In this document: one piece after another, positions 7,157-37,128 of the stretch
Layout: every line of letters begins with the position of its first letter
Numbering within the stretch: the first letter of the stretch is position 1
DNA from: Marsupella aquatica
Lineage: Eukaryota; Plantae; Marchantiophyta
Direction of reading: 5' to 3'
Assembly: GCA_973895155.1 (NCBI GenBank)
Contig: OZ316893.1
Location: forward strand, 13,036,359-13,100,358
DNA: 64,000 nt
Made by a program: the position numbers and the translations under genes
The notes under the pieces: model-generated
The model's input: the letters and a program-made list of their open reading frames with translations, nothing else
Told to the model about the DNA's origin: nothing
The model's database searches: none

Positions 7157-10100
7157 GATTTGGTAATTGAGTAGTGCTTACAATAGAAAATTCATGTGAT
7201 TGAATTAGTTTCTATAGGTAGCATGGATACTGTTGTGCAACTATAACTCTCAATTTTTGGATTCCTAGATGTGGATCACTCTAGAATTTTGTTGGTGTTT
7301 GAAATAATGATTTACCAAGATTGTATCATGTGTAAAATTTTGTTGATTTTGTATGTGAGACATATGTGAGATTTTTGTTATTATATATGTTTACATTTTA
7401 GGGTTTAAAACTCTAAAACTAATGACTCTAAATCTAGTGATCAATACACTCTAATGTCCTGTCATTTAAGTTCTATAATACACCCAAATTTAGTGATCAA
7501 TACACTACAATGTACTTTCATTCAAGTTCTATAATACACCCAAATCATTATAATTGCAGTGATACTAGATTATGATCATATTATTATAACTATAGTTAAT
7601 AAAGATATGATGTTCGTCATCCATTTTAAAGTTATAAAATAACAACCTATAACATTTAAGATATAATCATATAGCAAATAATAATGGATTGAATGATACG
7701 TCTGTAAATAGGGTCATATAAGAAATAACAAAAGCTCTACAATTATTAATTTAATTTGAGCATCACTGAAGAATGTATATTGTGTATATATAACATAACC
7801 TATATGGTCTAATAATACTATTATAAAGCTCTTAAATAAAAACTCTTTCCACATAAAATCAAATAACATAATATGAATTCTAATCTCCTTAAAAGAATCC
7901 CTATAATAATGTCATCTGATTATCGTGTTTGCATGGTTACATACTGTGATTAACATACCAGTCAACACATCTTGCTCATACACAACACTCGATTAGAGAA
8001 AAATACATCAATATATATGAAATTTCATTTAATTTTATTGTAGAGTAAAAAATATTTTTTTCATTACGGACACAACTATTTTATGTTCAAAATAGCTACT
8101 CTGGATCCAACTAACTAACCGGATAGACTAAATAGAGATTATCCACTTCTGAAGAACGAGATTCAATGACTATGAAGTGCGGCCTATAAAAAAGAAACAC
8201 ATTTCTTAATTAGATATGTCCATGAAGTGCGCTTTTATAGAGCGATATCAAATTCAATGGCCAACATATTTTGTTTCTTACCCATAAGTTCTTGTAAAGG
8301 TTTGGTGCCTTGACAAAAATAGATTTCAAACGGGTCTTTCGATTTGCATAGTTGATATAAGTTTAAGAAGTTTGACATAAATAAATCATTATCTTAATAA
8401 CAAATTTTCTTATATTTTTTAATTGATTTTCATGTTCGGGTCAATAGACAAATCATCAACCTTCCCAAGTAACCAACAGTGGGGTTGGTTCGTCATTCCA
8501 TGAAAAATAGGGTACAAAAATAGTTTACTATGAATTCCATGATTTTTTTGTTGCTCTGCCATGTCTCACGTTGTATTTGTATGAAATATCAAATCTGATT
8601 AGTGAACAATGAGTATATCATATGAATTTATATCATGATAATCCGCAATTTAATACTTAAATAAAAAATGCACAATGTAAAGTTATACTTCAATCAGTTT
8701 TTCAGTTGTACTTACATGTCGAGGGTCTGCCAAATTTGTTTTCAACCAGCAAATCTCAATCACCTACAAATCTCAATCGCCTGCAAATCTCAATCGCCAA
8801 GATTGTACTCATTTATATATGGCAAACAAAGCTCAATAAGGACTTTGCGACCAACAATTTATGTAATGGAAAACAAGCCAATGAGAATGTTAGATCATAT
8901 AGACCAAGACATGCTTTTAGACCCTGCTCTCCATATTGGGTAAGTTTGCTGTGCGTCTTCATTTGGGTGCTAACGTATTGATCCTCGATGTGATTTTTAA
9001 AAACACTTACAAACTCAGACGCCAATTGTGGATATTGTTTTTGATACGCAATAGTTTTCTCTGTTTGGGAGAGCCATATTCAACTTTGTAGTAATGTGCA
9101 TTGCAATTTGTGTTTGTATAACCTAAAATCATATATTTTTATATCAATTCTCATCGCCACATCATCCTTGTGATCAAAGTAAAGAAATATATTTTCAAAG
9201 TGAAGGTTACAATAAAATTAATCAATTATGGGTGTGCAAGTATTGCAACATCTCCAACAAAGTCATGGCAATCTCCAAATATTCCTAAATTTTTTTTATA
9301 TAAATGTGATATCGGCTTGAAAATTGGATTGTGATTTTTTTTTGCTCTTACTCCATTTTTTACACTTATCTATGAAGCTTTCCAAATCATCTCTTATATT
9401 TTAATGATCATAGATAAGTTTTGGTGGATCTTCGATGGTCATTGCCAAGATCCCAAATTCCTTTGTGATTCAATTTTCCCATTAATATTTATTGTATTGC
9501 ATCTATTTGCCTCTTATGTCGATCTCCATCCTTGAATCTTTTTGTAACTAGTATTGCGTTTCGAGGAATCAGTGGACAATCCAAGATATGGCATATGGAC
9601 ACCTATCCTTGGATGTCATTTTTGATGCGATATAAATTTTGCACTTACTCATTTCTCAAGGAATGAATCTTCTTAAGTGCGGGAAGAACACATGATGGAC
9701 ATGTATCTTTGTGATGCCTTTCGATGCCAATCTTCCCAAATTGCATGATCTTATTTGCAAATTTTACATTACTCTTCGTTTTGGCCCATGCTACCTCTTT
9801 GCTTTATTTTGCTAACAAATCTCTTTTGGGTGTGTATAGCTTGGGAATTCTAAGGATTATGAACTCAACCTCATCCAAATTGGCTTCTAACTTGTCCCAA
9901 AGATATAGTGCAAAGTTAAGTGTCAAATGTTGAACAAATCCTTATGGCTTCTCATAATCACGTTGAAATTCAATAATTTTATCTCGTGTCATGTATTATT
10001 CTTTCTTCACATTCTTGTATATCTAACGCACCATCTCATTTAGAAGGTTTTTGTAACCCTGTGTTCCATGCATGGTATATTTTCTCCTCAATTTTCTCTC

Positions 10101-10979: not shown

Positions 10980-12641
10980 AGTGTAGTAGTATATCGTGCT
11001 ATTAGAGTATGTACGTTTGGTATGAGTGCTATTGGAGCCGATAAGGTTCCGTCAGGTTTGTGTGAGAGGGTACTTCTCACTTGTGAGGCATTGAAAGGTC
11101 ATCTTTCAATGTTGAGCCTTGGAGAGAGAGGAGCTTGAGTGTGGCTATGGTGGCTGTGAGCTCCGCTTGTGTAACGTGGATTCCTTGAGTAGTGCAAGGT
11201 GCGTTGGCTTGACATACGTGTGTGATCGGATCGGTGCGGGATCGATGGGGTATTGTTGATCGGGATCGTTGTGCCGATCTTATGGAGATTACATTGAAAG
11301 ATGACATTTGAAATCTGTTGTACGGACTGTGCGGACAGAAGTTCGATTGATTGAGTTGTCGACGATTCGTGGTAGCTCGGATCGTGCGTTGTTATCAAAC
11401 AGATCGTTGGTATCTTGACCTGTATCGTTGTTGTCTGATCGGCCTGCTTCCCGATCGATGTACAGATCTGTGATTGGTGACAGGTTTTGAGTTGGAGGTC
11501 GATTGATGATTCGTGGAGGAAAGCGAATATTGAGTAGATGTTGGACAGTGGAAGTCGATCCGTGAGGCTTCAGATCCGATTGCCGGCTACTGTGAGGCTT
11601 CAGATCTGATTGTCGGCTACCGTGGGGCTTCAGATCTGATTGTCGGCTATTGTTGGACGATGTTGGCAAGGCACAGGTGAAGCGACGGCTCTTTTCCTGA
11701 AGGAACGGAGCTGCCAATGCCCCGTAAGAAAGAAACGAGGGTCAAAGGTGTTGAATCAAGCTGCTGCCAATTCTGTGGAAGGGCTGCGTTTTTCATGAAG
11801 GAAATCGACAGTTTTCAAGAGCTTTTCGTGAAGGAAGTAGTCATTTTAGGGGTCAGGTGTGAGGCGCATGAGGCCACCCATCCCGAAAGTGCTCGCGCGA
11901 GGCGACGCGTGAGGTCACCCATCCTGAAAGTGCTCCCAACCGCGAGCGCAAAGTCACCCATCGCGAGCGCAGGCAGGCGCAAGGTCGAGGTCACCCATCC
12001 CGGGGCTATTCCGAGCCGTGAGTGCGAGGGAAGGCACAAGGTCGAGCACGAGGAGGTCACCCATCCCAGGGCTATTCCCAACCGCGAGCGCTTAACTGGC
12101 AAGTTCTCATCCCAACTTGTGTACACACAAGCTTTGACAACTTGTTGTTTAGATTCAAGCGCCAGGGGAACTTCCCGGTTTGTTTAGAGGCCTATTCTAG
12201 GCCAAATCAGAGGCTGTTTTAGGGTTTTTGATACTTCTAAGTCCATCTAGACTCACAGATTGAACCAATTTTGCCTTGGTTCTCATCTACAACATTGGAG
12301 TGCCATTGTGAAGCCTATTATGAAGGCTCTTCCTTGAACCTTATGCACATTGTCATATTGATTTGCATTTGCTTTTGTGTGGAGAGTTGAATGGTATCCA
12401 TTCTTGTTTCTGGATCCTCTTCACACATATTTCCTGTTTATGCGCCATGTTAGTTTGGTGTGGGCGCTTGATTCCATAGGAGTGATCCGGGTTTGCAACT
12501 GGACATTCTAGTGTGCTGTGTATTTCTCTCTTGGTGATGTTGGAGTGATGCCCAACACACCATGGTGAGTGCTTGTGGTGCTGACAGGGATAGATTGCCC
12601 TTAGGGTTAGCACATAGATTAGATTAGGGTTGGTCACCACG
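10980..12641 (+). other. Putative 5' LTR/leader remnant of the Ty3 element
   Basis: Non-coding, repeat-containing, CpG-rich region directly upstream of gag. It ends in CCACG (12637-12641), close to the inverse of TGTGG after the PPT at 29297, and is followed by a possible PBS TGGTGCTG at 12650. No direct 5'/3' LTR match could be seen. Confidence 0.35.
11561..11650 (+). repeat. 3 x 30-bp tandem repeat
   Basis: cgtgaggcttcagatccgattgccggctac / tgtgaggcttcagatctgattgtcggctac / cgtggggcttcagatctgattgtcggctat. Confidence 0.95.
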
Positions 12642-15107
12642 GATTCTTTTGGTGCTGCTGGATTACCCGATGGACGACGGACCGGTTTCACTCGGAGTGG
12701 GGCACAATTTTGGCCAGCGGCATTGGTAGCAGTCAGCAATGTAGCTTCAGACAGTGATTCTGATGAGGACTCAGTGACCAGTTCTCCTCATCATCAGGTG
12801 GTTGCACCTTTATTGTGGGATATGGACGAGATGTACGGGGCTACAAAGGGCCCACAACAATACTCTGGTGCAGTTGGCACAATTGATCTGGATGACTTCA
12901 TCCAGGAGTTTGATACGTGGTGCGATATGCAGACATTGCGTAACGTCACATTGTTTACCCCTTTCATGGCATGGAAGGGATTATTCCAGCATTTGGAGGG
13001 GCCACCCATGGATGACTACCATGAGTTTCGGAAGGCTCATTTGGTTGAGATTGAGGCATGGAGGCAACATTGGTCACCTAATTACGTGTCCATCACCTAT
13101 GGCACTAGTGTGGCTGCCCAACCCATTGCCACAACTGCTGCTTCTTCTAGCAGCACTAGCCAGAGTGGCACACCATCCATCAGCAGCACTCCAACAGCAT
13201 CCATCGCTACTCCTGCCGGTGTGATTGTGACAGGAACTGGAGGTGCGCCAGCATTTAATCCTGTGGTGGAATTCTTTGAGGTACTGAAGCAGAACTATCA
13301 GGGTGTGAGAACTGATAAGTTGAAGGGTCTTCAGGAGTTCCAACGCAAGACTGGAGAGAGCCTACGTGAGGCATACACACGTATGCGCAGATTGATCACT
13401 GTCACCAAGGGAGTGACAGAGGCTCAGGCAGTCCAATTTTGGTATGCAATTCTGGACAGAGAATTGCGACGCAGAATGAGAGATGTCACTCTACTTAGGG
13501 ATGCAGATCCCACATTAGCAGTTGTTTTCACCCTTTCTGAGCGCATTGAGCTCAATATGGTGAATGAGAAGGTGGTGACTTCTGGATTTGCCAAGGAAGC
13601 ACCAAAGGCTGCATCTACATCCACACCATAGCCTACTGCACGGAAGAGCTAGAGGGAGAAGCCTACTGCACGAGAGTCTACCAGCCAGAGACCTGTGCCC
13701 TCTTATGCTGGACAACAGTCAGGATGTTGGACCTGTGGTGGGGATCATGCACAGAGATAATGTCCAGATCATAGAGGATCAGGGGGAGCATCAGCGCCTG
13801 ATCAGCGACAGTGTGATCACTGTGGAGCTCCAGGACACACCAAGGATAGATGTTTCTCACTCCACCCTGAGTTACGGAGAGGAGGATCTTGTACACATCA
13901 TCAGGGAAGGGGAGGAGGAGGTAGAGGTGGTGGACGTGGTCGTGACATGCCACATGCAGGGAGACAGGGAGGTGACGCTACCCCTGCTATAACCATAGAT
14001 CCAAAGGATGCTAAGATTGCTCAATTGGAGCAACAACTAGCTGCCATGGCTAGTTCCCAGGTGAGACCTAATTCTGGTGATGGGCCATCTACATCCTATG
14101 GACCTTCCACATCCCATGGTCCTTCCACATCTTATGGAGCTGATGGAGACCTTGCCACCATGGGATTCATGTGTGGCACTGCACATATTGATGCATCAGC
14201 AGCTTTGACACGTGGGGCAGCCAAAGCTCTTGAGCCCCAAGGAGCAGTAGTGAAGTTAGATCCACAGAGGGGGGATGCACATCGGCAGACAAAGCTTCCT
14301 CAGTCTTTTATATTGTCAGAGATAATTCAGACTACCTCTATGAACCCGATTCGGACAAACCCTAGCATGGGTAAGTTGGCAGAATTAATTAGTGATGCAG
14401 CAGGGATGACAAGTACCCTACTGGGGGCGGCTACTGCCATAGTACGCACCCCATTATTTTCAGCGACAGACATGCTGAACTAGGGAGTTGGTCCTACAGA
14501 AGTGTTCAGATTGGCAGCTACATTCTGTGAGGACACTCCAGTGGTTGCTTCCCATGCAGAAGCAACTTGCAGTGTTGAAGCAGTGAAGACCATGCCACCT
14601 ACTGCTACTAGTGAGACATGGCATGCAGCAGCAGTGAGGTTGGTGGATTTACCAGCATGCCCTATATTTGAGAGGACTAGGTTTAAACCTAGTGTTGTGT
14701 CATTGGATAATCGAACTGGTATCTTCCGATTAGTTGGGCCTTCTGGAGCAGTATACCAGCCAGAGAGAGTGTTACTGGATACTGGTGCTCAGCCCTTGAT
14801 GTTGGGAAAGTCTGCCATACATGGATTGGGATTGCGTCCAGAGGATTTGGAGGATTATCCCTTTCCCATTCAGACTTCATTGGGGGGACCTACACCTACA
14901 CAACATATCACCAGGAGACCACTTGATTTGAGGATTCAGGAAGGTCATACCACAGATAGCTCACAGATACAGGCACGAGCTATTCTGACTAAGGCAGAGT
15001 CATATGATGTGTTGGTGGGATGTACAATGCTCTACCCCATGGGATTTATTCTTGATTTTTGGGAGGAATCAGTGTCATATAGACCTGATTGGCAGTCAGG
15101 AGATGCT
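12630..15107 (+). pseudogene. Ty3 gag + aspartic protease portion of the polyprotein
   Basis: Single frame with stops at 13629, 13650, 13758 and 14481. Contains a Gag MHR-like motif (FQRKTGESLREAYTRM), zinc knuckles CWTCGGDHAQR*C and CDHCGAPGHTKDRC, and protease motifs VLLDTGA (D at 14778) and YDVLVG. Confidence 0.9.
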
Positions 15108-16972
15108 TATAAACGATAAAAATTACACCGGCGATATTATAGTTTTTTTTAGGTTTAGAAGTGTCAACTAGAGGTCAACCAAGAGTATTTAGGAAGTAGT
15201 AAGCAAGGACCAGTGGTTATTCATTTTGTTGAGATGACAGAAAGGCTGGAAGTAGGGGAGGCGACGATCATCTTGATTAACGGTCGTGTAGGAGTCGAGT
15301 TCTGCTATGAAGGCTGCGATGGCCTACTAGCAGATGGCAGAGTATGTGCCTTAGGCACAAGAGCTCGACAGAGAAGGCAAGGGGGGGGCGAATATAGGAA
15401 CCCCCGTTAGCAGGAATCGGTTAGCTCATGAGTGTAAGTCGCTAGGCGAAGGAGTGCCTATGTTCATGTTCACTATTCGGATCAAAGAAGGAAGCTGTCG
15501 TGTATGGGATGCGGCGGGGCAACAATTGTTTGGAATGAAGGGCGAAGAGTTCCGCCAATGATTCACCACCGGCGAGGCCATCGAAGAACTCTGTAGAAAG
15601 GTCATGCGGAAGAAATGGAATCTACTGCTAAGACGGGAGAACAGCCACGATCAGCGGATTACGTGGCGATTAATCACCGCCAAACAAGTAATCGTGGCTG
15701 GCGAACCGAGCAACCCCAAGGAAGATGACAGAAGTCAGGAGGTCGAGGCACATATGGCAAGATTAACAATCGAAAGTCCGGAAGCTTCCGGATCAGGCGC
15801 AACCGAAGGGAATCGAGGAGGCCGTTGCACAGTTCAGTAACCAGGAAGACAGAACTTCTTGACATAGTAATCAGCAGTTCTTGGCTTCCACTCATCGTTC
15901 TGGTAGGCATTAGTTAGCGTTCTTGATGAATGAGCGAAGGAGATCAAAGAGGGGGCGCGAGTCGTCCAAACTGTAATCGGCGCACCCCAAGAAGTAGTAG
16001 AGGCCTCGGGCAAAGACGGACGCGAGGCATAGGTATTTAGAGGCTGTGGAGCGCTAGGCGCTCTGTCACTGTTTGCTAGAAGTCTGGGGCAAGGGAGAGC
16101 TCCACTCACCTTAGGAATGCCAGCAATTTTGTAATAGTGTCCCTACTCAGTTGAGTAGTCTTTGAGTATAAAGAGAGAGTTTGGAATGAATGCAACAGAG
16201 TGAAGTACGCACTTGAGCAGTGAATGAGACCGTCAAATCAGAGAGAGAGAGAGAGAAGGAATTTGCCTTATGCAGCAAGTCGTTACTCGTTAATCGCAAC
16301 GATGAATGAATATCGTCTCATTGCGAACCAGAACCTTACGGGCCAGCGCCTCAAGGTATAGGTTGAACAGACAGCTAGTGAGAAGCGGTGTCTGGTTGGA
16401 GATAGTGTGTTTTGAAGGCGATACACTGGTCGTCATACACCTCCATCATACAAGGGTAAACGTGATACTGGGGTACTTGCTTAGGGTAACCCTGTCATAG
16501 TCACCCACACAATCCGGAAATCAATTGCCAGGCAGGCTGATTCAAAGGACAGTCGGACTTAATTAGGTCACGGCTACTAAAAACCATGAACGCAGACAGC
16601 AGTGACGACAAGTCTTGCTCCTTGATTACCTTAAGATCACTGGAATTGTGGATCTGTTCTATCGGCACCCATCTTATTTCCCGTCAGTTACTATACGAGA
16701 ACATTCCGATTTGCTTGATCACTTACCGCGAGTGGTGTGGGTTCATTGAGATTGTGTATAGAGAGGGGTTAGTGTTGGCCGAGGCTGAAGTGCCTAAGAA
16801 GTGGAAGACGGAACTCGACATTCAAGAGCACTTGGTCGGATTCACTTACGGGGACTGTGTCGAGATAGACGGAGTGCCGCCTCTCGAAGGTCGGTTAATC
16901 GTTTAAATGAGATTATTGAGGAGAAGGTAGTTAAACGGCCATTAATCGCAAGGTCGAAGTAGGCGTTTAACA
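15108..16972. mobile_element. 1865-bp solo-LTR-like insertion with 5-bp TSD ATGCT
   Basis: ATGCT at 15103-15107 and 16973-16977. Termini TATAAACG...CGTTTAACA form an imperfect inverted repeat of the TG...CA type with a G>A change. Removing the insert and one TSD copy restores the host reading frame. Confidence 0.8.
15235..15700 (+). pseudogene. Degenerate RPA70 C-terminal-like (Zn-ribbon OB-fold) ORF inside the insertion
   Basis: Frameshifted pieces FCYEGC...VC...AHECKSLGEGVPMFMFTIRIKEGSCRVWDAAGQQLFGMKGEEF...KKWNLLLR echo the Rep_fac-A_C pattern (YxAC..C..C..C, F.e.ae.llG.sa.el). Confidence 0.5.
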
Positions 16973-16977
16973 ATGCT

Positions 16978-18489
16978 CGATTGAGCAAATTGCCAGTGAC
17001 ATTTAGTGGACCTATGGGAGGCCCTAAATCCACACCATTGTCTTTGGCAGCATTCAGTGGTGTAATTGCTGGACCTGATGATTTGATTGAGGGTAATGCG
17101 CATGCAGCCAATGTTCCACCATTGGAGGAGTCTCATGAGGAGCACATCATGCGAGGATTACCTGTTGGCAGTGTTGTGCCACCAGTGTGGGGCACTGCAC
17201 AGGCCTTGCAACAGGCAACAGCACGATTGGTACATGATGCATGGCGTCATGCTTTTACACCACAGTCAGGAGTAGAGCAGTCTCTTGCAGATGGACCTGT
17301 GACTCTTTCACCATTGGATACCACTCCTATTGCTTGGCAGTATCCACCGGAGGGTATTTGTTTGTTGGATCTTTTTGGTGGGATTAGCACTGGATTGGCT
17401 GCTCTTCTTCAGGCAAGAATTCCTGTGCGTCGTTATTTGTATGTGGAGACAGATGAGACAACACGGAGGGTCTCATTGCGACATGTGGCTATGTTGGTGG
17501 ATAGATATCCACAGTTACTACCAATGGATGCTGTTCGTGGTTATCAGCATGCACTACCTGCTGATATTTCATTGTTGGGGGCGGATCATCTACATCGTGT
17601 TGGCCCCATTGATTTGGTGATTGCTGGTTGGCCATGTCAGGGCCAATCTAGAGCTGGCATTGGGCATGGACTTCATGATCCACGCTCTACATTGTTTTGG
17701 GAGATGTTACGGGTGCTGCGTCATCTCCAGCTACATCAGACACAGTCTCTAGCATACATTTTGGAGAATGTGCCATTGTTAGGTGATGATCGTAGTCGGA
17801 TTGTTGCCAGTGTTCACCAGGTGAGGTCTTGGATTGGACTTGTTGTGTTATTGGATGTTGCACGTGTGGATTCTCGTGCACATTGTCCACGCTTGTGGTG
17901 GACTAATTTGATCCCATGTGAGGTGCTGAAGCGCGCATTTGACAGCATTCCACGCTCACCAGCCTTAGTGGTGGATGATATTTTGGATCTAGGGCGTCGT
18001 GCACAGGGTGTGACCCAACCTGATAGACCTCCATTGGCAATGGTCAATGCAGTTGGGTGCCCACATTGTGCATTACCCACTCTTGTAAGCCACTCTACTT
18101 CATATGCATTCAGAGCAGGTGGCCCTGGACTTGTATGGGACACAGCTCTCCAGCAGTTAGTGGAGCCTACTGCTGATGAGAGAGAGCGTGCTATGGGATT
18201 TTTGACTGGCACCACTGCAGTTGCCTCTATGTTAGAGTGTTTGCGGCGCCAGGTTCTTGGTCAAGCAATGAATTTGAATTGTTTGACTTGGATTATCAGC
18301 TTGGGAGTAGTTGAACAGTTGCGGATGCACTCTGCCAGAATTACTGATTATCCCTTGGTGAGCTTGCGGTCCACTGAGACAATATTGACCACAACTGGGG
18401 GTGAGCAGACAGTCCATGGACCTATGACAGGATTGGTGGCTGCACAAATTGTTGAGCAGGAAGGGACTGCTCAATCTACTGCTAAATAG
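16978..18489 (+). pseudogene. DNMT3-like C5 cytosine DNA methyltransferase domain within the retrotransposon pol frame
   Basis: Motifs in canonical order: I LLDLFGGISTGL (17362), II YVETD, IV IDLVIAGWPCQG (PC at 17632-17637), VI ENV (17764), VIII AH[C]PRLWWTNL (17881), IX ERERAMGF, X RRQVLGQA. They closely parallel the DNMT3 catalytic domain. Confidence 0.92.
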
Positions 18490-18534
18490 CAATCATCGGC
18501 TATCTCTTCTACCCTACAAAGAGATATTAGGGAT

Positions 18535-18930
18535 TTGGTGGAGAGTTGGGAACCACAACTTGGCCCTAAGTTAACAGGGGAGGAGAGACGTCGCATGCAT
18601 CGATTCCTGAAGAGTTATTGGAATTGTTTTGCATTCAGCATGAAGGATTTGGGGACATTGAAGGGCCCTGGTATTCAGATTGAACTGGCTAGTGATGCAC
18701 CAATCTTTCGTAGACCATACCGTTATAGTGACATGGAGAGAGCTCTGATTCAAAGTAGAACTCAAGATTTGTTGGAGGCTGGATTGGTGGAGATTTCATA
18801 TGGGGAGTATGCATCTGCCATAGTGATGCCAGCCAAGAAGGATGTGCATGGCAATTACACAGATAGGCGCATGTGTGGTGATTACAGACCTATTAATCGC
18901 TAGACAAAATCTGATCGATATGCCATGCCC
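18535..18930 (+). pseudogene. N-terminal part of Ty3 reverse transcriptase, truncated by an insertion
   Basis: PIFRRPYRYS...LLEAGLVEIS...YASAIVMPAKK...RRMCGDYRPINR*TKSDRYAMP, in frame with the DNMT domain across one TAG. Ends abruptly at 18930. Confidence 0.92.
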
Positions 18931-19829
18931 CCCGGGGTCCTCACTTAATAACTTCCGACCCATCACGCGCGAATAAGTATAGGGTTTTTTAATTCAATTT
19001 TCTAGAATACTTAAGAAGTTTTGTGGAAGAACTATAGGGGTTTAAAATTAAATCCCGCAACTTAGAAGTATAGTAGGGCAGAAAAAAACCTTGCTCTTCA
19101 ATATAAGTTGTTAGTATAAGATAGGGGTATTAGCCAACAAAATATATGGGGTATACGTGTCAATCTTTTATTGGTCCACGTGGCAAATTCCTTTCATAAC
19201 TTGGTTTAGGGGCACCATGTGGGGGACCATGTGTACTCCATGGCCAATTTGGGTCAAAATTTAAATTATGGGTGTGAGCGGGAGGTCATCTATGAGGGGA
19301 GAAGAGCAAGGGTCAGGCGCGCAGGTCGAGAGCCATTTAGGACCATCGATCCAGGTTAGTGCCGTTTGTGTCAACATCATGCGGCCATACATTGGTAGGA
19401 CAGTCCATTCTTTGTTACTTGCAACGAGACTTGCGGCGGCCATGCAGGGCCTGATTTAGGGTAAAATCAAGCAGCGATGATCCAACCATCCGTTTGTTGG
19501 GCCATCGGTCGGCTATGGTTTGCCCTGGCCATTTTGAGAAGTTCGTGAACGTCTTGCAGCGTTTTGGGCAAAAATTGAGAGGGTGAGTCGCGAGGGTAGG
19601 GGCTAAACGCTGCCTCGATACTTTTCGAAAGGAAATGCATGCATGCTGCAGGGCGCTGCGATGCACTGATTGAGGAAGGTTGAAGATTGATCGAGGGCGA
19701 GATGACTGTGGATGGAGCTGCTGTGATCGGGGGGCACTAATTGCTGTGATCGGGGAGCTTTGCTGTTTGGGCTCAATGCTGCTTCGATACTTTTCCGAAG
19801 GATTTGCATGCATGCTGCAGGGCTTTATA

Positions 19830-20330
19830 TTGAGCTGCAGCTTGATCGGGGGCGGGGCTGCGACTTTACATTGAGCTGCAGCTTGATCGGGGGCGGGGCT
19901 GCAACTTTACATTGAGGAGCTGTGATCGGGGGCAGGCTGCAACTTTCAATTGAGCTGCTATGATCGGGGCTGCAGCTTTTGATTGAGCTGCTGTACGTGA
20001 TCAGGGGACAAGATTGAGCAAGGCTGAGATTGATCGGGGGGACAATTGTTGATCGAGCTGCTGCTGTGACCGGGGGAACTTTTTGTTGAGCTGGAGCTGG
20101 GTCGGGGGCGGCGCTGAAAATTTCAATTGACTGAGGAGCTATGATCGAGGGTGGGGCTGCAACTTTCGATTGCGCTGCTATGATTGGGGTGCTGCAGCTT
20201 TTGATGGAGCTACTGTGATTGGTAAACCTAGATTGGGAATGATGGAGCTATTGTGACCGGCAAACCTATGATTGATCGAACCTGTGATTGAGCTGCTATC
20301 ATCGGCAAACGTGTGGTCGAGTTGCTATCA
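19830..20330 (+). repeat. ~41-bp GC-rich tandem repeat, degenerating rightwards
   Basis: ttgagctgcagcttgatcgggggcggggctgcgactttaca at 19830-19870 and a near-identical copy at 19871-19911, with further diverged units carrying gatcgggg. Confidence 0.85.
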
Positions 20331-20537
20331 GAGGGCAAACCTACTTTTGGTGGAGTTTTCTATCCATTGCTCTTAGTGCTTTTGAATTGCCTATGCTGTG
20401 TGTCCTACTTTTTGTATAAATTGCACTCGTGATGTTAAGGGCAATGCTCATTTGTTTGTATGCTTTTCAGTTTACTTGTTGCCACCTTACGCTCCGCAAA
20501 GAAACTTCTCGTGCCATGCATCTCATCGCTAGTCTAC

Positions 20538-20800
20538 TCTATTGCTCGCTACTCTGCTCTATTTCTTGCTCTCTGCTCTATTGCTCGTTGCTCTGCTCTA
20601 TTGCTCGCTGCTATGCTCTATTGCTTGTTGCTTTGTTGCTCTATTGCTCGCTGCTATGCTCTATTGCTTGTTGCTTTGTTGCTCTATTGCTCGCTGCTAT
20701 GCTCTATTGCTTGTTGCTTTGTTGCTCTATTGCTTGTTGCTCTGTTGCTCACTGCTTTGTACCTCGTTGCTCTGTCGCTGCTCTGTACCTCGCTGCTCTT
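20538..20800 (+). repeat. Higher-order minisatellite (20+23-bp subunits, 43-bp period)
   Basis: ctattgctcgctgctatgctctattgcttgttgctttgttgct repeated exactly at 20598, 20641 and 20684, flanked by degenerate monomers. Confidence 0.95.
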
Positions 20801-22108
20801 TTGACAGTCCATGCCAATGTTTGTTGTGCAATACCTTGCTTACCCATAGCTTCATTTGTTAGCCAGCTTTCTCCTCATCAAGCCAGCTCCTTTGTCCTTG
20901 ATCATGTGAGCTAGTGTCGAGAGCTCCTAAAGAATCCATGTCTGTATCTCCCCCCTCTTTTGCAAGCAGATTTATGAGAGCTTGTCCTGCTTGTAAGGAT
21001 CCATTGAATGATGGCTTAGCACTCCAGATGTTGAAGTGAGAAGGAACTGGGGAAGGAACTTACCAAAAGTGAACACATTTAAGTGAGAGAAATGCCTGAA
21101 CTGCAGTCGCTGCACATGTTGATCATACTAAAAGCTCATGTTCGGGTGGCAGTCCAACTCATTCCAAGTTGGCAATAGAGCTTGGACAGGAACTCTGAAT
21201 TCCATGGATTGCTGAAAATCAATTTAGAAATAGAGGCTTTGACTTGGCGCAAGGGAGCTAATTCGATCTGCAAGTGCCATTTCATTCGATCTGCAAGTGC
21301 TTGTGGTGGAGTTTCCTCACTGTCCTGCTAGTTTTGAATTGCTTCCTTTGATTCATTCTGAGTGATTTGATTTTCTTGCTCAATAGAATGTCCTGTCAAT
21401 CATCTCCCTCTCTTTGTTGCTCTTGAGTTCCCTTTGCTTTGTCTAGGAGACTTAGATAAACTATTAGCTCTTGGTGAATGCAATATGTGGCTGTTCCTCC
21501 AAGGCAATGGAAGGCATTCGTTTATACAAGGTGGGCATTGGTTTGAGTTGTGACTGAGGTGATTGTGGCTGTGATCAAGGTGCAGCAAGAGTTTTGATCC
21601 AAGTAGGGGAATAGCAGATTCGCCCTTGGTACAACAGAATCCCTAGAGGCACTATTGTTTCTCCTCTGCCAGCTTGTGTGACATTCATTTGGCTTTGTGT
21701 TGTGTAGGTTTTCCAACCAAAGGTTCTCTTCAACATCTATAACTTGGAACCAGTATTATGCAGTTTGGTATGCCCTGACCCTGGCTCTAGCTGAACTCGA
21801 ATTGAAATTTAAAGTTGAATTTCAGTCAGCCTTTTCATATGCTCTTGACTTGTCTTGCAGGATGGATTGGCTTAGGATGTAGTGGAATCATCTGAGAAGC
21901 TTCAGCAATATACCAGGGTTCACATGTGAAGATTGTGGAAGGAGCAGGATTCAAATATCACCATTTGCTGCAGCTACAATCAAACAAGAGATTGATTAAA
22001 GGTATGATTCTATCTAGGATGCTTGTAGTTGCAAGTTACATAATATCAATCTACTGTTCAATATATGTTGAATGGATGTTGAGGGGTTGCAGAACAAATG
22101 TTGAGTGA

Positions 22109-22823
22109 ATGGATGGGCCTGTGTGCAGAGGTAAAACCACTATCCAAGAAGCAGAGATGGCTTCTGATGTGCCCAGGATTGACATATTTTCCCATAAGGA
22201 GCACCACCGCATGGACCCCCCTTGCTGTTTCTTTTGTGATGAGACAGACGATGTGGTTTTCTGTGATGGGCCTTGTAGTAGACATTTTCACTTTGTCGGT
22301 GGAAAAGGTATGCATGGGCCTAATTGCACTCCTATCACATTGCCTAAAAACAATGACTGGAGGGCACCTTGGGTTTGTACACTCTGTGCTGCTGGTAGAG
22401 CTAGATGCTTTGCTTGTGGCCTCATTGGCAGATTTGAACATCCCACAGCAGAAGAATCTCTTGTGCTCCATTGTGCCCACCCTGACTGTTTTTCTCATTA
22501 CCACCCTGGTTGCCTTAGGGTGCACACTTATGGTTGGGGCACTGCCTGAGAGGTTTCATACAACAAAACCAAACAGCCTAATGTGCCCAAGGCATTTCTG
22601 TGAGTACTGTAAAGTCTACAAGGATGGTATTAAAGACTTTGTACAGTGTCGCAGGTGCCCTCGAAGTTGGTGTCATGATGAGAAACTTGGGGGAGTGAAA
22701 CACCTCAGGAGGTGTGTGAAGGGCAGGGACCACTGGGATGTGGAAGGGTGGCATTTCATTTATTGTCATAGGCATGCAATACCTGATGGGGAATTGGTTC
22801 CTGCACAGCCACATACCTCTTAG
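22109..22823 (+). pseudogene. EDM2/NSD-type composite (triple) PHD finger module, frameshifted near 22540
   Basis: CFFCDETDDVVFCDGPCSRHFH...WVCTLC...CFACG...CAHPDCFSHYHPGC, then in the next frame CPRHFCEYC...FVQCRRCPRSW...FIYCHRHAIPDGELVPAQPH. This parallels the plant EDM2 PHD region (CRRCPKSYH...LIYCQEHEID). Confidence 0.8.
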
Positions 22824-23088
22824 AGTTTCTGAAATTGGTAGAAATGCTTTGGTAGAGGGTTGGTACAAAGCAAACTTATTCACTAGACTAATTACATGTG
22901 AACTATGATCAACAAGATTTTGTTTGTGTTGGACTTCAACTTTTTTGATCAAAAGATTTTTGTAACTATTGTGGAGTAATGTCTAATATGCTTCATATCG
23001 TTTTGTTTATTGTGCTGTATGGCAGGTTCATTGTGTGACTGATTGTTTTCAGAACCCTTCATACTTTAACTTTAACAAATTGATTGAA

Positions 23089-26000
23089 ATGGCTACCCAG
23101 TTTGTAAAACTATTGCACAAGAAAAGAGATGTGGTGACTGATGGGAAAGATGAAGAACCTATAGCTGTGTTGGCCTTCAAAGAGGGACAAACTTTAGCTG
23201 ATTTTTGAAGTCGAATTCCTGATTTGGATGATTTTGATTTTGATTTCTGGGATTATAGGCTTCCTGGTCGCATGAAAGTCAAGAGTGAGAAAATGATTGA
23301 GTTGTCTGAATTGGATGGGAAAGTTGCTGTCATTGAACAAATAGGATCCTTGCCGACTGGTAGAACACAGTTTCCATCAGTATCTCCTACTGTCACCCAA
23401 TCGGCTGTAGTGAACTCTTTACAGGGTGAACAGCTTCATGAAGCTCCCCCTATGAGAGCTTCTTTTGAGTCTCTTCTCATGTCTCAGTCGGCTGTCAAAG
23501 TCTAGAATGATGAATATATAAGACTAGAGAAGTGGATTCACAAGAATGGTTATAAAGCTCATAATTGGAGAATTCAAACTTGGGATGAAGGACAGGATGT
23601 GAGAGGCCATCTAGAGTGTCTTGAGTGCAGAGTGATCTATGGGAGGGCAGACAATTCACAAGATAAGAAGTCAATTGCTAATTTGTTCAGCAATTTTAAG
23701 ACCAAGCACCTTGCCTTTGCTAAACACAAAGACAATTACTACAGGAGAAGGGGCATTGCTATGACTAGGGTCAAGCCCTCAGATCTTGCACAGAAGCCTG
23801 AGTTTGATTATGAGGGGGCCATAGCAACTGGCCTAGAGATAGTCCAGACTCTGAATGTTGAGTGTGGAGGTGATGATGAGCTATTTCATGTGCCCCCTGT
23901 GCCTGGTGTAGCCAATAATGCAAACAAGTGGTTCCTTTATAAGGTTCGTTGTAAAATCTGTGGGGCAATCATGGATTTGGTTTGTAAGAAAGGGACTTTG
24001 GACCACAACCTGAGGACACACTTGGTCAGTCGGGGTCATCTGGATGTAGTTGAAGCCAGAGAGAATACTACTGAACTTGCATTGAGATCTGGAAAGAGGG
24101 GCAGACCAAGGAAGCCAGATGAGAGGGATCAACATCCTTCACAGAATTCAATTTTAAAATTCTTCAAGGAGGATGCTTCCAATGCAAGCAGTAGCTCTGG
24201 CACAGGTGGGTCTATAGACATTGATGTGGGCTTAAGTTTGCTCTGTTGGGGAATATGGGATGAATTTGTAGAGTGGAAGAATGTGAAATATGCTGTGAAA
24301 GGTATCTTGCATGATCAACGTGGTGGACATGTATGGGATTTAGATGTTGCAGCCTCTGTTCATGTCTACAATCCCGTCACCAATTCTATTGTACATATAG
24401 AAGGACTATTTAGGCATAAACATTGCTGTAGGTTGTCCTTGTATGGTGGAGGGTTTCTGAACCTTACTTGCAGTAGATGTCATGCTATAACACTAGAAGA
24501 TGACTTTTGTGGGCGGGTGCACAGGGAAGCGGAGGCTTTAGCAAAGAGAGGGGGAAGAAGCACAGAGGATGGTTTGAATGCACGTTATTTGACACGTCCA
24601 GAGTTGACCACACAGATGCATGGTCTGAATGTCAAGAGAAGAAAGGAGAGATGGTTGTTGGCACAACAGACTCAAAAAGTGTGTGCCCTTAGTACTAGGA
24701 AGAGAAAATTGCAGGAACTGTTAGGAGTAGCTGCAGACAGAAAAGATTTGAGACTTTTTCTAAAAAATATTGTCAATGGTCATAGGAATGGTGCATTTGG
24801 TGGAAAAGAAGGTCTTTGGGATTTTTTGAAGGATGTAAGTAGAAATTTGGAGAGAAGTGCAAGGGGGTTTCGTTACAGTCAAAAAACAAAAGCCATAGCT
24901 CAGGCTATGTTTCAGTATGGGGGCCGGCAGGTGGCCCATGTTTTTGCAAGAAATTTAGCTGGGCCAAGCCTGAAGACATTGAAAAGAGATAGAGCAAAAT
25001 TTGTGCAATTTCGTGCTGGAATTAGACCAAAAACATTCAAGGAGGTGGCTCGGATTTTGTCTGCTGCAAAGGAGATGCTAGGAATTCAAGGCGATGTACC
25101 TATCATGCTTGCAGAGGATGAAACTAGGATAAAGGAAAGCCCAAGGTATGTTTGTATATCATAGCATTTGAAGCTTATTTGTGATACATGTAGACTTTTT
25201 ACTAATTCTTTATATCTGACTTACTTTTCATTGGGCTCTATGCAGGTGGGAGGCCAAGTATGACACTCTGATTGGTTTCTGTGGCCATAAGGATGAGCAT
25301 ACCTGTGAATTTGGACTGGAGATTCTTGTAGGTGACGGTGAGGATGGCTATAATAAGATTGTAAATACATTTGAGGATTATAACAAGGGCATGTATGCTA
25401 GAGTTGTCATTGTCAATCCATTGCATGTTGGAATGCCAAAGTTGGCCCTCTGTGCTATATCTACCTGTAACAAGTTCAAGGCAGAATGGGTTCGAGAGCA
25501 TTGGGTGCAATTAAAAGAATCTTGGGATGTGCACTACAGAGACTTTGTAGTCCTTTGCTTGGGCATGCTAGTGATGGTGATGCAAGACGTAGGAAATTGA
25601 TGCTAGAAGACTATAGAGGAGCAAATGGCTCTTACCCTAGATTCTGTGTAGGGTGGGAAGGATGGCCATATTCAGTTGCCATATTGCCTAATGGGGACCT
25701 ATACGGTTTTGGTGATCAAGACCAGCCTCACAATGGGAAAAAGTTGATTAACCCACTAGATCGAGTGTCCTCAATAATGGCACTTGGAGACCAACATGCT
25801 TCTTTGTTTCATGTTTGTAATGTGTACAATCGCTATGCAATTCATCAACATGGATTAAATTGGGATGATGTGAACAGATCTGATCGTCAAAATTGGGCTG
25901 GTCCCCAAATAATAGCATCCGAAAAGGTGCGTGATTGCTTAGCAAATCTGCATGTAAGAACTGATCTATCGTATGAGCGAAGTTTGGGGACAGAGTTGTA

Positions 26001-27648
26001 TCTGCAGGTCTGTGCAGATTACATTGACATTTTCTACTCCCAAAGATATAACCTGAGAACCAGAGTGAAGCTGGCAGGCAAAGTATCTTGGTTCTTTCGA
26101 TTGTGGAGGTTGTGGTTGAGGTACGGTGATCATGCTGTTGGTGGAAATATTGCTTCACATACAGAGAAAAATATGATTTCAATCCAAGCTTTTCATGATG
26201 TTAATATGTCTTGTCAATTTGTTGTGTTGCTTGTGTGTGCATTTTGTGATAAGTTTTCTCACTTGTGTATTCCATTTCATGAATTGGGTTCTGATTGTTG
26301 TGAGATCTTTTTCAGCAAGGTAGGTGGAATGAGTGGCCATGAGAGGAATTATGATTTTGGCTCTTTGTTGGATAGTGCTGTTGGGTTGAATCGTCTTGCT
26401 GGATTAGAATGTGGACCAGAGGGCTTAAAAGTAGCTCGCTCACATAAGAAGCAAGATCATGTGTGGGCCAAGCTTCATCCTTTACTTGAAGGTGAAGATG
26501 CACCTAATCTTTTTGATTACTCTGGAGTGCAAACTAATGAGTTGGTGGTTGCAGCATTGAAAGAAGGATTCGAAGAAGCAAAAGAGTTGCTAAGAAGGTT
26601 ACAAATGTCTCCCTGGAGTGATCTTCTAGCAGCAAGAAAGCGATGGTGGACTCACCCTTGGGATGTGGAAGTTGAAACATGGCCAGATTCAGCTGTAATA
26701 GAAGAGGTAGTTGTTGCTGATGATTCTGAAGAGCATGTAGAGCACAGATCTCCAATTGGACCTCGTCCAGAAGGAGAGTTTCATGAATTTGAAGATCCTG
26801 AGGAAGATCTAAATCGAATTGATGCATGGTTGACAGATGAGTTAACCATTCCTGATGATGTTTTGCAGGATGGGGCTGAGTTAGACATACCAGAACCTCA
26901 TTCTGTAGAGGTAGATACTTTGGGGCATGAGGTTCGTCATGTTCTATCTTCTGTTGTGGCTGAGCTTACAGAGTCTATTTAGAGCCCTGTGCAGGAAAAG
27001 AAGAAGGTTTTGCCTACAATTACCTATGAGGGCAGAACAATTTACAAATCAACTTTGGTGAGTCAACTAGTGGGCAATCCTCATTTGTCTAAAGATAGGC
27101 TAACAAGGGTGAAGCAAGTGGCATACTATAATCTTGGTAAGAGAAAAAAATGTGATCCAAATACTGTGACTTGTTTTGTTGATGTTGGGAGTGATTGTGG
27201 AGTAGCTTTTGAAAGTGCTAATGATGCAGGCCCTTCTACAAGATCAAAGAAGGGGAAAGGTAAGGGAAGAGGTAAATCTAGGATTCAAGAGCCAGTAGTG
27301 CAAGCAAAGAAAGAATTTTGGGTTGGTCGGATTATGATGATGAGACAGAAAGTTAAGGGACAATGGACTAGAGTGAGATCTGCTATTGATTTGCTTGACA
27401 GACCAACACCTCCTCATGGACACGAAGGGAGTATTTGTCAGTTCTTGTTCAATTGGTATAAGCCAACAAGCTCAAGCAAAGTTGAATTCACTTATGATAC
27501 AACTGATTTACAATGGATTGATATAGAAATGGTGATGATTAATGTTACTCTAACCATGAAACAAGGGATTGGTTTAGTGTATGTGTTAGATCGAGTTGAT
27601 AAACAAGCTTTGGATACTTATTTGGAGACCATGTCTAGAGTTGAATGA
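23089..27648 (+). pseudogene. Large P-element/THAP9-like DDE transposase gene with N-terminal C2H2 zinc fingers and an AT-hook
   Basis: ATG at 23089; stops at 23206, 23503 and 26980; GT-AG intron at 25146-25245; frameshift near 25548. Motifs: CLEC..H..H, CKIC..H..H, KRGRPRK, GFRYS...GPSLKTLKR, LAEDETRIK...YDTLIGFCG, HASDGD, DQPHNGKKLINPL (DxxH), DRQNW, ADYIDIF, LGSDCCEIFFS. Confidence 0.75.
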
Positions 27649-27693
27649 TTTGCATGCATCAATAGTCATGGTAGCGGTTTTAGTATGTAAGAT

Positions 27694-29121
27694 GTGAGAG
27701 TGTTGGAATATCTATGCAGTAGTTCTATTGTTGGCAGTGTTGATGCCAAGGAACGTGATAGGGTTCTACAGAGAGCCAAGAGGTTTCGATGGGAGGGAAA
27801 CCATCTTTTTAGAGTACTGCATGATGGTAGGATGTTGGTGGTACCAAAACCATCACAACGAGTACATTTGGTGCAACATGCGCACGAGGAGTTGAGTCAC
27901 TTTGGTGTGAAGCGCACTTACAGCTTGCTGCAGACACAGTATTGGTAGCGTGGTATGCACACTCATGTCCAGCAGTTGATAGCTAAGTGTGTGGTATGTG
28001 ATAGAGTGAGAGCATTATTTAATGCTCCCACTCCCCAGTTGCACCCGTTACCGATCATGGGTTTGGGATATCGTTGGAGTTTGGATTTTGCTGGTCCATT
28101 ACCTCTTACCCAACGCCATAATCGGTATGTTTTGGTCATGGTGGAACACTTCTCCAAGTGGATTGAGCTAGTGGCATTGCCAGATAAAGCCAGTGGAGGA
28201 GTTGCTGCTACATTTTTGGATCGTGTACTCAGTCATTTTGGAGCACCAGCTGAGGTGTTGACTGATCAGGGAACTGAGTTCCGTGGAGAGTTTGAGAGTT
28301 TGTATGAACAAGCTCTGATTGATCATCGTACTACCTCTCGTGATCATCCTGAGGCAGATGGATTAGTTGAGAGAGTTGTGCAAACTGTGAAGAGAGGATT
28401 GCGTAAGTAGGGCTTGCAGGTTGGTCATCTGGGAGATTGGGATCTCCAGCTACCTTGGTTAGCTATGGGCTACCATTTCAGTCGGCAAGCATCACTTGCA
28501 TCCTTCTCACCCTACTTTTTGCTCTATGGTAGAGAGCCAGATTTGCTAGCAGCTATTCGTCGTGATGCTGCACCAGTTGTGAACTTGGATGATCCTGATA
28601 TTTGGGTCAAGGTGTGTTCAGAGAGAGCATGGGTATTTCAGAGAGTGATGCCCATGGCTTTTGACAACCTTGCCATTGCCCAACATTGTGATACTTTGAG
28701 GTATGCCACTATTCGTGGAGGAGGTTACCGTGCAAGCATTCGATGATTTCATTCTGGTGATTATGTTTATTTGCAGCAGACAGCACCCACGACACTTGAT
28801 GTGACCGCAGGCCGGACAATCTTACGTGTACGTGAAGTGTTGCCTTCTGGTGTCCTGATGTTGGAGGGACGCGATGGTATGGTTTGGAAGGATCATGTGC
28901 GCAACTGTGCACCATGTCACCTTCCCAACATTGATGGTACAGTAGATCCAAGCTTGGCACATGTTCGTGCTGGCTTGAAATATATGTTGTGTGGATCTGC
29001 TCAGGGAGCAGCTACTATGTTGATTTGTGATAAGTGTTCTAGAGGATGGCACATGTCATGTTTGACACCACCATTGCAGGTGATTCCTAGTGGATCATGG
29101 TTGTGTCCTCAGTGTCGGTGA
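27694..29121 (+). pseudogene. Ty3 integrase (H2C2 + rve core) with C-terminal PHD finger
   Basis: HEELSHFG...CVVC; WSLDFAGP, LTDQGTEF, DGLVER. One frame through stops at 27946, 28408 and 28744. Ends [Y]MLCGSAQGAATMLICDKCSRGWHMSCLTPPLQVIPSGSWLCPQCR*, a C4HC3 finger with the first Cys changed to Tyr. Confidence 0.93.
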
Positions 29122-29295: not shown

Positions 29296-30498
29296 TTGTG
29301 GGTTTTGGACATGTGTGGACATGAGTTTCACTTGTATTCCATTCTCTTGTGTTTGTGATGTGGCAGCGTGACTATGTTTGGATGTATGTGACAAGCGATG
29401 TATGTTGTGTAGCGATATGTATGCGCACGACAAGGATCATGAGATTAAATTCACCATGAGAAGAAACAGACAAGTACAATAAGAAAAACTATGTTGGTAG
29501 TAGATGACTAAGACAACCATCGATCGCATGAGGTCTCGCACTATCTGACACTCTTAATTTGTTGAAGAAAGATTGACCGACACCGTACAAGATCAAGAAG
29601 CCAATCAAGATCAAATTCACGAGAATCATAGAAAATCACAAAATAAATAGGGATTCACAAACTAATTATTACTTTGAATGTAACAATGATGAAGGGGAAA
29701 GACAACTTTGTGAATTACCACATGCCAAGCCAAATCTTGAAGCATGCGCACAAAAGTTATCCTTTCCTTCAAGTTGTTTACATTTATACTTCAATCTATG
29801 TGATACCTATAATTTAGATATTATTTTTAAATCAAGTAAAAAAATTCACAAGGAATCAAAATATCCATGTAAAATATCTTATGTTGAACCAAAACTCCAA
29901 ACATGCGTGGAGATAGGTAATCTCATCAGTTACCAGTCACTTTCATCAGTCAACTTGATATCAGCTGCCACCTCATCTCAGGGAGGCCGCTAGGGTTGGC
30001 GGTGCGAGAAAAAAAATGGAGATTTTGTTTTGAATTTTAAAAAAAAATTGAGGAAAAAAAGCTCTATTTCAAAATTGTTTTTGCCATGGGGCGCCCGTAT
30101 CGTACAAACACCTCATCTTGGCGAGGCCAACCGAGATGGGAGAAAAAAAATTCTGAATTTTTTTATTGGAATACTTTTCCTTTTTTCCGGTCCGTACACT
30201 CATCTCGGTGAGGTCAGCCGAGAATGAGTCAACCTCAACTGCCTAGCTGAGATGCACGGAGGTGCGAAGGCCCCATCTAAACTCCTCAGCTGAGATTCTA
30301 AATTTTTTTAGATAATTGATATCAGTTATTAGCTATTGATAACTGATAATGTTGTGTACCCCAACATGCGCACATGAAAATGAGGAAGAGTGAGGGGTGC
30401 TCAGCCTCTTATAGCCTCGGCCCGGCCCCATCCCCCCATCCCCCCCTCCCAAACCCCTTGCCTGTCCTTCCCTTCTCAAGCCCGACTCCATTTGCCAG

Positions 30499-31010
30499 AC
30501 AAGTCCAAAATGAGTCAAATGGTGTATAGGGGTTTCAAATTCTTTGGATCATGTGGAGTGTACACAAACATGATCATATTAAATGATAGACAATAAATTA
30601 ATATAAATGAACAAAAGCTAATTTTTGATATTTTTGTACTAAATAAATGGCATTAATGACTTTCTCACCCCCACATTAGTACATTACTATCGAGCCAGTA
30701 ATCATCAAAGTTACCCTCATGTCCCCCTATAATTTATAAAGTGCCCCTATGCTAGGAGTTTGCTAGGCAAGTCCAAAGAGGGTCAAATGGTGTATGGGGG
30801 TTGCTTTGGATCATGTACAAACATGATCATATTAAATGATATACAATAAATTAATATAAAGGGACAACAGCTAGATTGTGATATTTTAGTACTAAATAAA
30901 TGGCATTAATGACTTTGTCGCCCCCACATTAGTACATTACAATCGAGCCAGTAATCATCAAAGTTACTCTCCCCCCATAATTTATAAAGTGCCCATGCTA
31001 AGAGTTGACT
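30499..31010 (+). repeat. Tandem duplication of a ~250-270-bp AT-rich unit
   Basis: caagtccaaa...gtcaaatggtgtat...aaacatgatcatattaaatgata...cccccacattagtacattac...ataatttataaagtgccc occurs twice (about 30499-30766 and 30767-31010). Confidence 0.9.
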
Positions 31011-34778: not shown

Positions 34779-34926
34779 GGAAAATTTAGTCTTCAAGGCT
34801 GCATGTAGCAACATCAAATAGCAAAAGTTTACAATAATTCAGACAGAAAATGGGAAAATTTAGTCTTCCAGGCTGCATGTAGCAACATCAAATAGCAAAA
34901 GTTTACAATAATTCAGACAGAAAATG
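34779..34926 (+). repeat. 2 x 74-bp tandem duplication
   Basis: ggaaaatttagtcttc(a/c)aggctgcatgtagc...cagacagaaaatg repeated with one mismatch. Confidence 0.95.
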
Positions 34927-37100: not shown

Positions 37101-37128
37101 CTAAGAAGTTCACTGCTTTATGTCATGA

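Follow-up and report, generated by a model that had tools for sequence, protein, structure and literature searches.

A decayed DNA transposon occupies positions 18931–27690 of a 64,000-nucleotide stretch of contig OZ316893.1 from the liverwort Marsupella aquatica (hereafter the window, numbered from its first base), where its left part interrupts the reverse transcriptase (RT) gene of a Gypsy-type retroelement. With high confidence, it is read as a dead, right-end-deleted copy of a multi-copy terminal inverted repeat (TIR) transposon whose transposase has a predicted P-element fold, and which likely moved by P-like cut-and-paste transposition with an 8-bp target-site duplication (TSD). Observed directly were the terminus at 18931, the presence of multiple copies, the catalytic residues D677, D796, D845xxH and E1039, and the absence of THAP; an intact member of the clade further showed TIRs and one 8-bp TSD.

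The boundaries were examined with contigs from four public runs (X1–X4) mapped on the window, representing at most four samples from two studies, one of which may be the source of the window itself. Contigs with unrelated flanks start at base 18931 in X2, X3, and X4 (13, 12, and 14 contigs; flank agreement 0.43–0.44), identifying it as the true left end, and many of them diverge after 18991–18994. A variant of this end was present on 22–57 further contigs per run. Uninterrupted Gypsy contigs run beyond 18930 into RT sequence (8 in X1, 15 in X3). On the right, other copies of the element extend past 27689 (two contigs, X2), and the match to intact Gypsy contigs begins at 27691 (X2, X4). From these junctions, it follows that the element is multi-copy, starts with CCCGGGG, and has lost its right end. 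A first-pass annotation, made from the letters alone, had extended the element to 27690 with CCCGGGG termini; the left end proved real, but 27690 is a deletion junction rather than an element end, and the window holds only one terminus, the plural being justified only through relatives. No inverted copy of the 16-bp left end was detected in the 64-kb window at up to four mismatches. Rfam on 18500–28000 and ARAGORN on the whole window returned no matches. The left arm varies among copies, with low summed depth over 19062–21893.

Decay of the window copy is evident from three stop codons and one frameshift in the transposase gene and one frameshift (near 22525) in an accessory gene. At the second and third stops and at both frameshifts, the sequence of other copies departs from that of the window, so these lesions are likely private to the window copy. 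The observed/expected CpG ratio was 0.22 in the transposase gene and 0.12 in the accessory gene, compared to 0.64 in window positions 30000–64000, a depletion that long methylation would give. The history of this copy may have comprised insertion into the RT gene, one deletion that took the right end plus the remaining RT and RNase H of the host element, and decay under CpG methylation.

The transposase gene runs from an ATG to a stop codon across one intron and comprises 1486 codons, translated with X at the three stops (residues 40, 139, and 1265) and at a 1-nt gap (coordinates in Table 1). The 100-nt GT..AG intron was called because its removal restores collinearity with relatives that are uninterrupted there. 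The window protein aligns end to end with intact relatives of 1475–1530 residues (∼36% identity; 62% to the nearest fragment), and the gene is therefore not a chance reading frame. The first-pass annotation had described a gene of ∼1480 codons with one intron, two C2H2 fingers, and an AT-hook, and each of these was recovered: the fingers lie at residues 177–213 and from residue 288, and the AT-hook (RGRP) at 337. Every motif it had named was likewise found, in the order given: RYS (595), PSLKTL (626), EDET (676), SDGD (795), DQPHNGKK (845), SDCCEIFFS (1035), LSKDRL (1300), FWVGRI (1377), and FNWY (1421). The first ∼80 residues (23089–23330) are kept across the plant clade; by eye only, we take them to resemble a ubiquitin-like beta-grasp pattern.

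Complete ends were recovered from relatives. Locus L001, a complete element of 6,096 bp, has 26-bp TIRs without mismatch and an uninterrupted open reading frame (ORF; 1520 codons stop to stop), and is flanked by an exact 8-bp TSD, GTTTTCAT (chance ∼2e-5), within the 7–8-bp range of the P superfamily. Compared by TSD alone, these 8 bp are not the TTAA that is the target of Kolobok elements. Locus L002 (8,758 bp) has perfect 15-bp TIRs. Full-length copies, sought as earlier proposed, thus supplied both TIRs in two elements and a TSD in L001 but none in L002. Identity among three loci (L009, L010, and L011) exceeds 99% as far as a CCCGGGG end, beyond which they differ. Relatives share a CYCGGGG..CACT pattern at their ends, the termini reading CYCGGGG or CTTGGGG; as had been anticipated, they begin with CCC, CTC, or CTT rather than the 5′-CA of the P-element terminus. 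A CACGYGCG-type motif lies at position 34–36 in 11 of 20 TIR-pattern matches, window included, its variants having been picked after the ends had been inspected. Short TIRs with an internal site are a P-superfamily arrangement, the binding of the site being read here from sequence; P elements have internal transposase-binding sites near 31-bp TIRs, a similar layout (PMC7776569). CCCGGGG matches in L041 and L051 were rejected as termini because they fall inside an ORF, and those in L016 and L034 because they were not demonstrated as ends. Four of 10 termini show the letters RT (purine, T) at position −8; with p 0.04, tested post hoc over 13 offsets, this was not counted as evidence of target preference. 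Locus L022 is a family member nested in another family copy: from position 2702, just after a truncated transposase, it carries a family TIR whose start is identical to the right end of L012. In L002, the 3.3 kb from transposase to right TIR (5735–9065) contain a 174-codon ORF without a Pfam match, possibly a different cargo.

The fold was modeled with AlphaFold2 on a Riccia relative, P0004 (pLDDT 78, core about 90). Only two Foldseek matches passed E ≤ 0.001, and each is to Drosophila P transposase (2e-9 and 6e-9); RAG1 came next at 2e-3. Alignment to Drosophila P transposase (6P5A) with VIA-align gave Z 20.3 and rmsd 3.4 Å over 396 of 442 residues, covering P residues 144–569 and spanning the helix-turn-helix (HTH), the split RNase H, and the GTP-binding insertion, as compared to Z 11.0 for Transib, 10.1 for RAG1, 7.6 for ISCth4 (MULE-type), and 6.3 for Hermes (hAT). 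A P-type architecture (HTH, split RNase H, helical insertion) is accordingly what the model predicts. This comparison with P and Hermes had been suggested together with the claim of a P-related DDE core, and the claim withstood it: neither a hAT or MULE assignment nor lack of a DDE fold was found. In an Atlas language-model search, the nearest entries were P-transposase GBD/RNase H clusters (0.97–0.94), with a recognition score of 2256, under the 2300 mark. No hAT or MULE Pfam domain was detected in 34 + 38 proteins. The spacing from DxxH to E is 194 residues in the window and 191 in the Drosophila buzzatii P element (PMC3698922). Relative to the P GTP-contact residues listed in PMC7776569, and by spacing only, the D528-like D1036 is Asp in 66 of 73 cores, and within the plant clade the S409-like S911 is present in 13 of 22 and the D444-like D947 in 22 of 22 (the latter in 23 of 73 overall).

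A word-based search with the core identified 45 related proteins among 2,717 candidates. Those with names come from liverworts and one fern (Riccia sorocarpa, R. fluitans, Calypogeia fissa, and Adiantum nelumboides) and are annotated “hypothetical” or “unnamed”. A profile of 34 relatives matched 5,665 clusters at E ≤ 0.001, 941 of them at E ≤ 1e-30 (1.84 billion representatives, 50% identity clusters); the lineage is large and has intact members. Of 453 pattern matches in metagenomes, 103 proved to be relatives, and 80 loci were retrieved for analysis; GC contents from 31% to 66% suggest plants, algae, and other eukaryotes as hosts. None of 56 pattern matches in viral contigs encodes a relative. 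The single relative among 122 matches in prokaryote genomes, L081, lies on a short (2.1-kb) 67%-GC contig in an archaeal metagenome-assembled genome and was rejected as an archaeal member, being read as a likely binning contaminant of eukaryotic origin. A quick tree was made from 73 of 195 sequences, those with both core motifs, D677 and E1039 having been used to select the set. The window groups with Riccia and Calypogeia proteins (SH-aLRT 96), and the window, L001, and L002 fall within one 22-row clade (SH-aLRT 100). Taken with the named relatives, this placement points to a seed-free land plant as the probable host. Conservation across the 73 cores was near complete at D796 (71), D845 (72), H848 (73), and D/N1036 (73), and the RNase H DDE triad with the D(2)H motif, a P-superfamily trait, is present as D677, D796, D845xxH848, and E1039. 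An insert between the first two Asp bears two cysteines, C698 and C706, each in 71 of 73 cores. Distant members P0058, P0074, and P0081 have extra C-terminal Tudor (PF21743), SAP, or C1 domains, consistent with modules for binding chromatin or DNA having been acquired repeatedly.

The terminal modules are less uniform. Two C2H2 fingers were found in 12 of the 68 proteins longer than 1000 residues, and the AT-hook mostly in the plant clade. The THAP signature is absent from all 68, with no Pfam THAP match, in agreement with the earlier view that C2H2 fingers occupy the place of THAP; the two fingers, however, mark mainly the plant clade rather than the whole lineage. The C-terminal domain, found in 93 of 212 proteins collected, was modeled at pLDDT 86. 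Foldseek returned nothing for it at E ≤ 0.001, and the best of 48,161 chains gave a weak match (Z 7.3, rmsd 2.4, 80 residues aligned). The top 20 rows are all chromatin-associated, 8 naming BAH and 5 chromo/PWWP/Tudor; the 7 others are proteins that carry BAH. The small beta-barrel previously suggested for this region is thus supported by the model, with BAH and chromo-barrel domains as its closest (weak) matches.

Upstream of the transposase, the first-pass annotation had overlooked a gene for tandem NSD-type PHD fingers, with a candidate upstream exon near 21861–22001. It matches PF22908 (28.2 bits, cut-off 23.9), PF23011, PF00628, and, weakly, PF23004, and its first match in Atlas is a Streptophyta PHD_NSD cluster (0.90). 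PF22908 above cut-off, along with weak PF23011 and PF23004, is shared with EDM2/NSD tandem PHD cassettes, from which the gene differs in standing alone. Its resemblance to EDM2 may reflect orthology; what is demonstrated is the shared Pfam family. Divergent copies of the gene occur on several contigs in X1–X4; in record 29 of X4, its 3′ end is linked to the beginning of the transposase gene. The gene shows no alignment to the Gypsy PHD next to the element (best E 0.55). Together with its absence from 80–81 related loci, these observations make it likely cargo of this subfamily. Alternatively, it could be a host fragment or a separate insertion unrelated to the transposon family, consistent with that same absence, with the lack of homologs among 106 and 5 candidates in two word-based searches (weak evidence), and with intact L001, which has no second gene. 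Against this stand the divergent contigs, the join to the transposase, and the mismatch with the Gypsy PHD, as well as a summed depth that falls within the transposase range in all four runs (∼5–30x the left arm, which is not a copy number); a host or separate origin is regarded as improbable.

Among known systems, the element most resembles Drosophila P (6P5A/6PE2), Galileo, 1360/Hoppel, and THAP9. Shared with this group are the predicted HTH, split RNase H, and helical insertion; a DDE core with D(2)H and DxxE; short TIRs with an inner conserved site; an 8-bp TSD (one relative); a 3′ terminal G; an acidic region after the core; and a spliceosomal intron. In contrast to the group, it has C2H2 fingers, an AT-hook, and a Cys/His cluster instead of THAP, and ends in CYCGGGG rather than CA. 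Relative to P itself, the protein is longer (∼1480 residues against 751), with the first two Asp ∼45 residues farther apart, an extra BAH/chromo-like C-terminal domain, an accessory PHD gene in this subfamily, and GTP contacts that are only partly recognizable. Transib and RAG1 share a DDE core with helical insertion at about half the Z of P (9–11), and have 5-bp TSDs and CAC termini. The hAT and MULE transposases share the RNase H fold with an insertion domain and the C/DxxH motif at still lower Z; hAT elements make 8-bp TSDs and MULEs 9–11-bp TSDs.

Several observations weigh against a P-type assignment. The fold was predicted on P0004 (49% identical to the window over 772 residues) and not on the broken window protein, and the modeled core is only 14% identical to Drosophila P. 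Pfam P profiles gave no match on pieces of the window, where no transposase family matched at all, and on the 34 relatives matched one member each at E 2.6e-4, 0.06, and 0.13; PDB sequence searches, single and profile, returned nothing at useful E. The first two Asp are separated by 119 residues, compared to 73 in D. buzzatii P (PMC3698922), and by spacing only, equivalents of the P GTP contacts N447 (Asn) and K400 (Lys) appear absent. The tree of 73 cores covers this lineage alone, without canonical P, hAT, Kolobok, or MULE sequences. A TSD is present in one of two complete elements, that of L002 perhaps missing from a collapsed assembly. The barrel match falls below the noise guide (Z 8), which none of the 48,161 chains reached, and 80–81 related loci lack the PHD gene. 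Because THAP and CA ends were looked for and are lacking, the element is not placed in the animal P/THAP9 family. The low identity, the blindness of the Pfam P profiles to the lineage, and its size at E ≤ 1e-30 are also what a separate superfamily would show, sister to P with the same fold and other chemistry (no GTP cofactor, different end processing), as are its own termini, N-terminal fingers, Cys-bearing insert, and C-terminal domain. That interpretation is nevertheless unlikely, given traits of P itself: the 8-bp TSD, D(2)H, DxxE before the catalytic Glu, the 3′ terminal G, a whole-core Z of 20, and P clusters as Atlas neighbors. Nor need want of THAP separate the lineage from P: THAP is confined to animals (PMC7776569), and P already includes an element from an alga (PMC9977147). 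A divergent member of hAT or MULE, the common plant superfamilies, would fit one distant relative with a weak zf-C17orf113 match (E 0.0014), and an 8-bp TSD with zinc fingers would suit hAT; set against these are the Z scores of Hermes and ISCth4 beside that of P and the lack of hAT/MULE Pfam matches. On the predicted fold, this option appears largely refuted already and is considered very improbable.

Returning to the P-type transposon, it could belong to a P family already catalogued (in Repbase/Dfam or a Chlamydomonas library, e.g., P-2_cRei) and under-reported in land plants, an explanation that bears on novelty, not mechanism, and that is quite possible, if not the favored outcome. P-1_CR of Repbase is a Chlamydomonas P element. 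Some related loci have an algal-like 54–66% GC, an active P element (P-2_cRei) is described in Chlamydomonas (PMC9977147), and P is reported in Allomyces and Pucciniales (PMC5751038). P-2_cRei is likewise P-type in a green-lineage host, likened here by class only, and may or may not be of the same lineage. Conversely, the available text of a land-plant review gives six TIR superfamilies, P not among them (PMC9033089), and named relatives are annotated only “hypothetical protein”. A survey of 1007 plant genomes screened 17 superfamilies, P included by Pfam, and in its available text reports seven, none of them P (PMC12973397); this blank is not proof of absence because the survey required recent near-identical copies. 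No description of P-type elements in land plants, or of this lineage, was found in the literature searched, subscription papers, Repbase Reports, and supplements lying mostly outside its scope; such elements may already appear under P in transposable element tables supplementary to genome papers. The earlier phrase “poorly described lineage” therefore holds for land plants within that literature, without Repbase/Dfam, and is weakened by the P annotation in Chlamydomonas (PMC9977147). This is not a new system, P elements being already known in Chlamydomonas, with Repbase/Dfam outside the comparison.

A working model would have the N-terminal C2H2 fingers and AT-hook stand in for THAP, binding the CACGYGCG site that lies ∼35 bp in from each end, with the HTH and core pairing the CYCGGGG ends. 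The triad D677/D796/E1039 would carry out cleavage and the joining of the 3′ terminal G to the target, the stagger being 8 bp; in the P structure, the 3′ terminal G is the base that contacts GTP (PMC7776569). The BAH/chromo-like barrel would likely contact nucleosomes or target DNA, and the PHD gene product would likely read histone marks. THAP domains are reported absent from the green lineage and animal-only (PMC7776569). The plant PHD protein EDM2 binds H3K9me2 at transposons, where it suppresses premature polyadenylation (PMC7529245), and transposons are known to have taken up PHD and chromo readers (bioRxiv 2021.11.30.470311). A more far-reaching and doubtful proposal is that of an undescribed deep P-type branch, invisible to Pfam and widespread with intact members in seed-free land plants and other eukaryotes, in which zinc fingers replaced THAP, a BAH-like reader was fused, and an EDM2-type PHD cassette was captured to read silencing marks, steering insertion or keeping the transcript full-length in heterochromatin.

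Table 1. Coordinates of the transposon and its host retroelement in the window.
Feature	Coordinates	Strand	Notes
Host Gypsy-type long terminal repeat retroelement, 5′ part	12618..18930	+	gag, protease, C5 DNA-methylase ORF, RT start
Left TIR, core 16 bp (CCCGGGGTCCTCACTT)	18931..18946	+	end common to copies reaches ∼18994; contig starts, CYCGGGG..CACT pattern of relatives
Subterminal CACGYGCG-type motif, position 34	18964..18971	+	putative internal transposase-binding site
Left arm	19705..20800	not assigned	degenerate G-rich repeats of ∼35–41 nt (19705–20313), TGCTC-rich array (20526–20800)
Accessory gene, tandem NSD-type PHD fingers	22148..22823	+	∼225 residues, one frameshift near 22525; Pfam
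Transposase exon 1	23089..25145	+	C2H2 fingers 23617–23727 and 23950–24039; AT-hook 24097; Cys/His cluster ∼24415–24480; helical region; RYS/PSLKTL HTH region upstream of first catalytic Asp, D677 (25117); stops 23206, 23503
Intron GT..AG, 100 nt	25146..25245	+	sequence-predicted from collinearity with relatives
Transposase exon 2	25246..27648	+	frameshift near 25549; D796 25573; D845xxH848 25720–25731; P-type helical insertion; D1036 26293; E1039 26302; acidic linker; stop 26980; C-terminal domain
Conserved C-terminal domain	26992..27645	+	helical hairpin and SH3-like beta-barrel, BAH/chromo-barrel-like (weak)
Right-arm remnant to deletion junction	27649..27690	+	right TIR and TSD gone
Host retroelement, 3′ part	27691..29121	+	integrase (H2C2, rve), PHD

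In the Gypsy host, which is high-copy in X1–X4, the C5 DNA-methylase ORF (16963–18489; PF00145, E 7e-11) separates protease from RT, and a PHD finger follows the integrase. Elsewhere in the window, several inverted blocks of 73–84% identity, 15–19 kb apart (37128–38672 and 54280–55985), surround host-like exons (46843–47532), with tandem repeats at 54916–55957; they are possibly a large foldback-type element or one repeat as two opposed copies. A Helitron-like Pif1 helicase 2B fragment (PF21530, E 1.5e-19) lies on the minus strand at 61223–61810, and a LINE-like remnant, a coiled-coil ORF followed by a zf-RVT fragment, at 374–2777. Tandem duplications of ∼260, 74, and 203 bp are found at 30491–31006, 34779–34926, and 51356–51755, respectively.

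Land-plant inventories give six or seven TIR superfamilies and no P, and the largest survey looked for P with Pfam profiles that this lineage escapes. If the lineage is unreported, one superfamily would be added to land plants, and a class of “hypothetical” liverwort and fern proteins would be explained. Intact L001 would lend itself to testing how a P-type transposase lacking THAP recognizes its ends, and whether dependence on GTP, a cofactor used by P alone, is an ancestral trait. The chromatin-reader-like C terminus and the PHD cargo would offer a testable route to insertion-site choice or anti-silencing.

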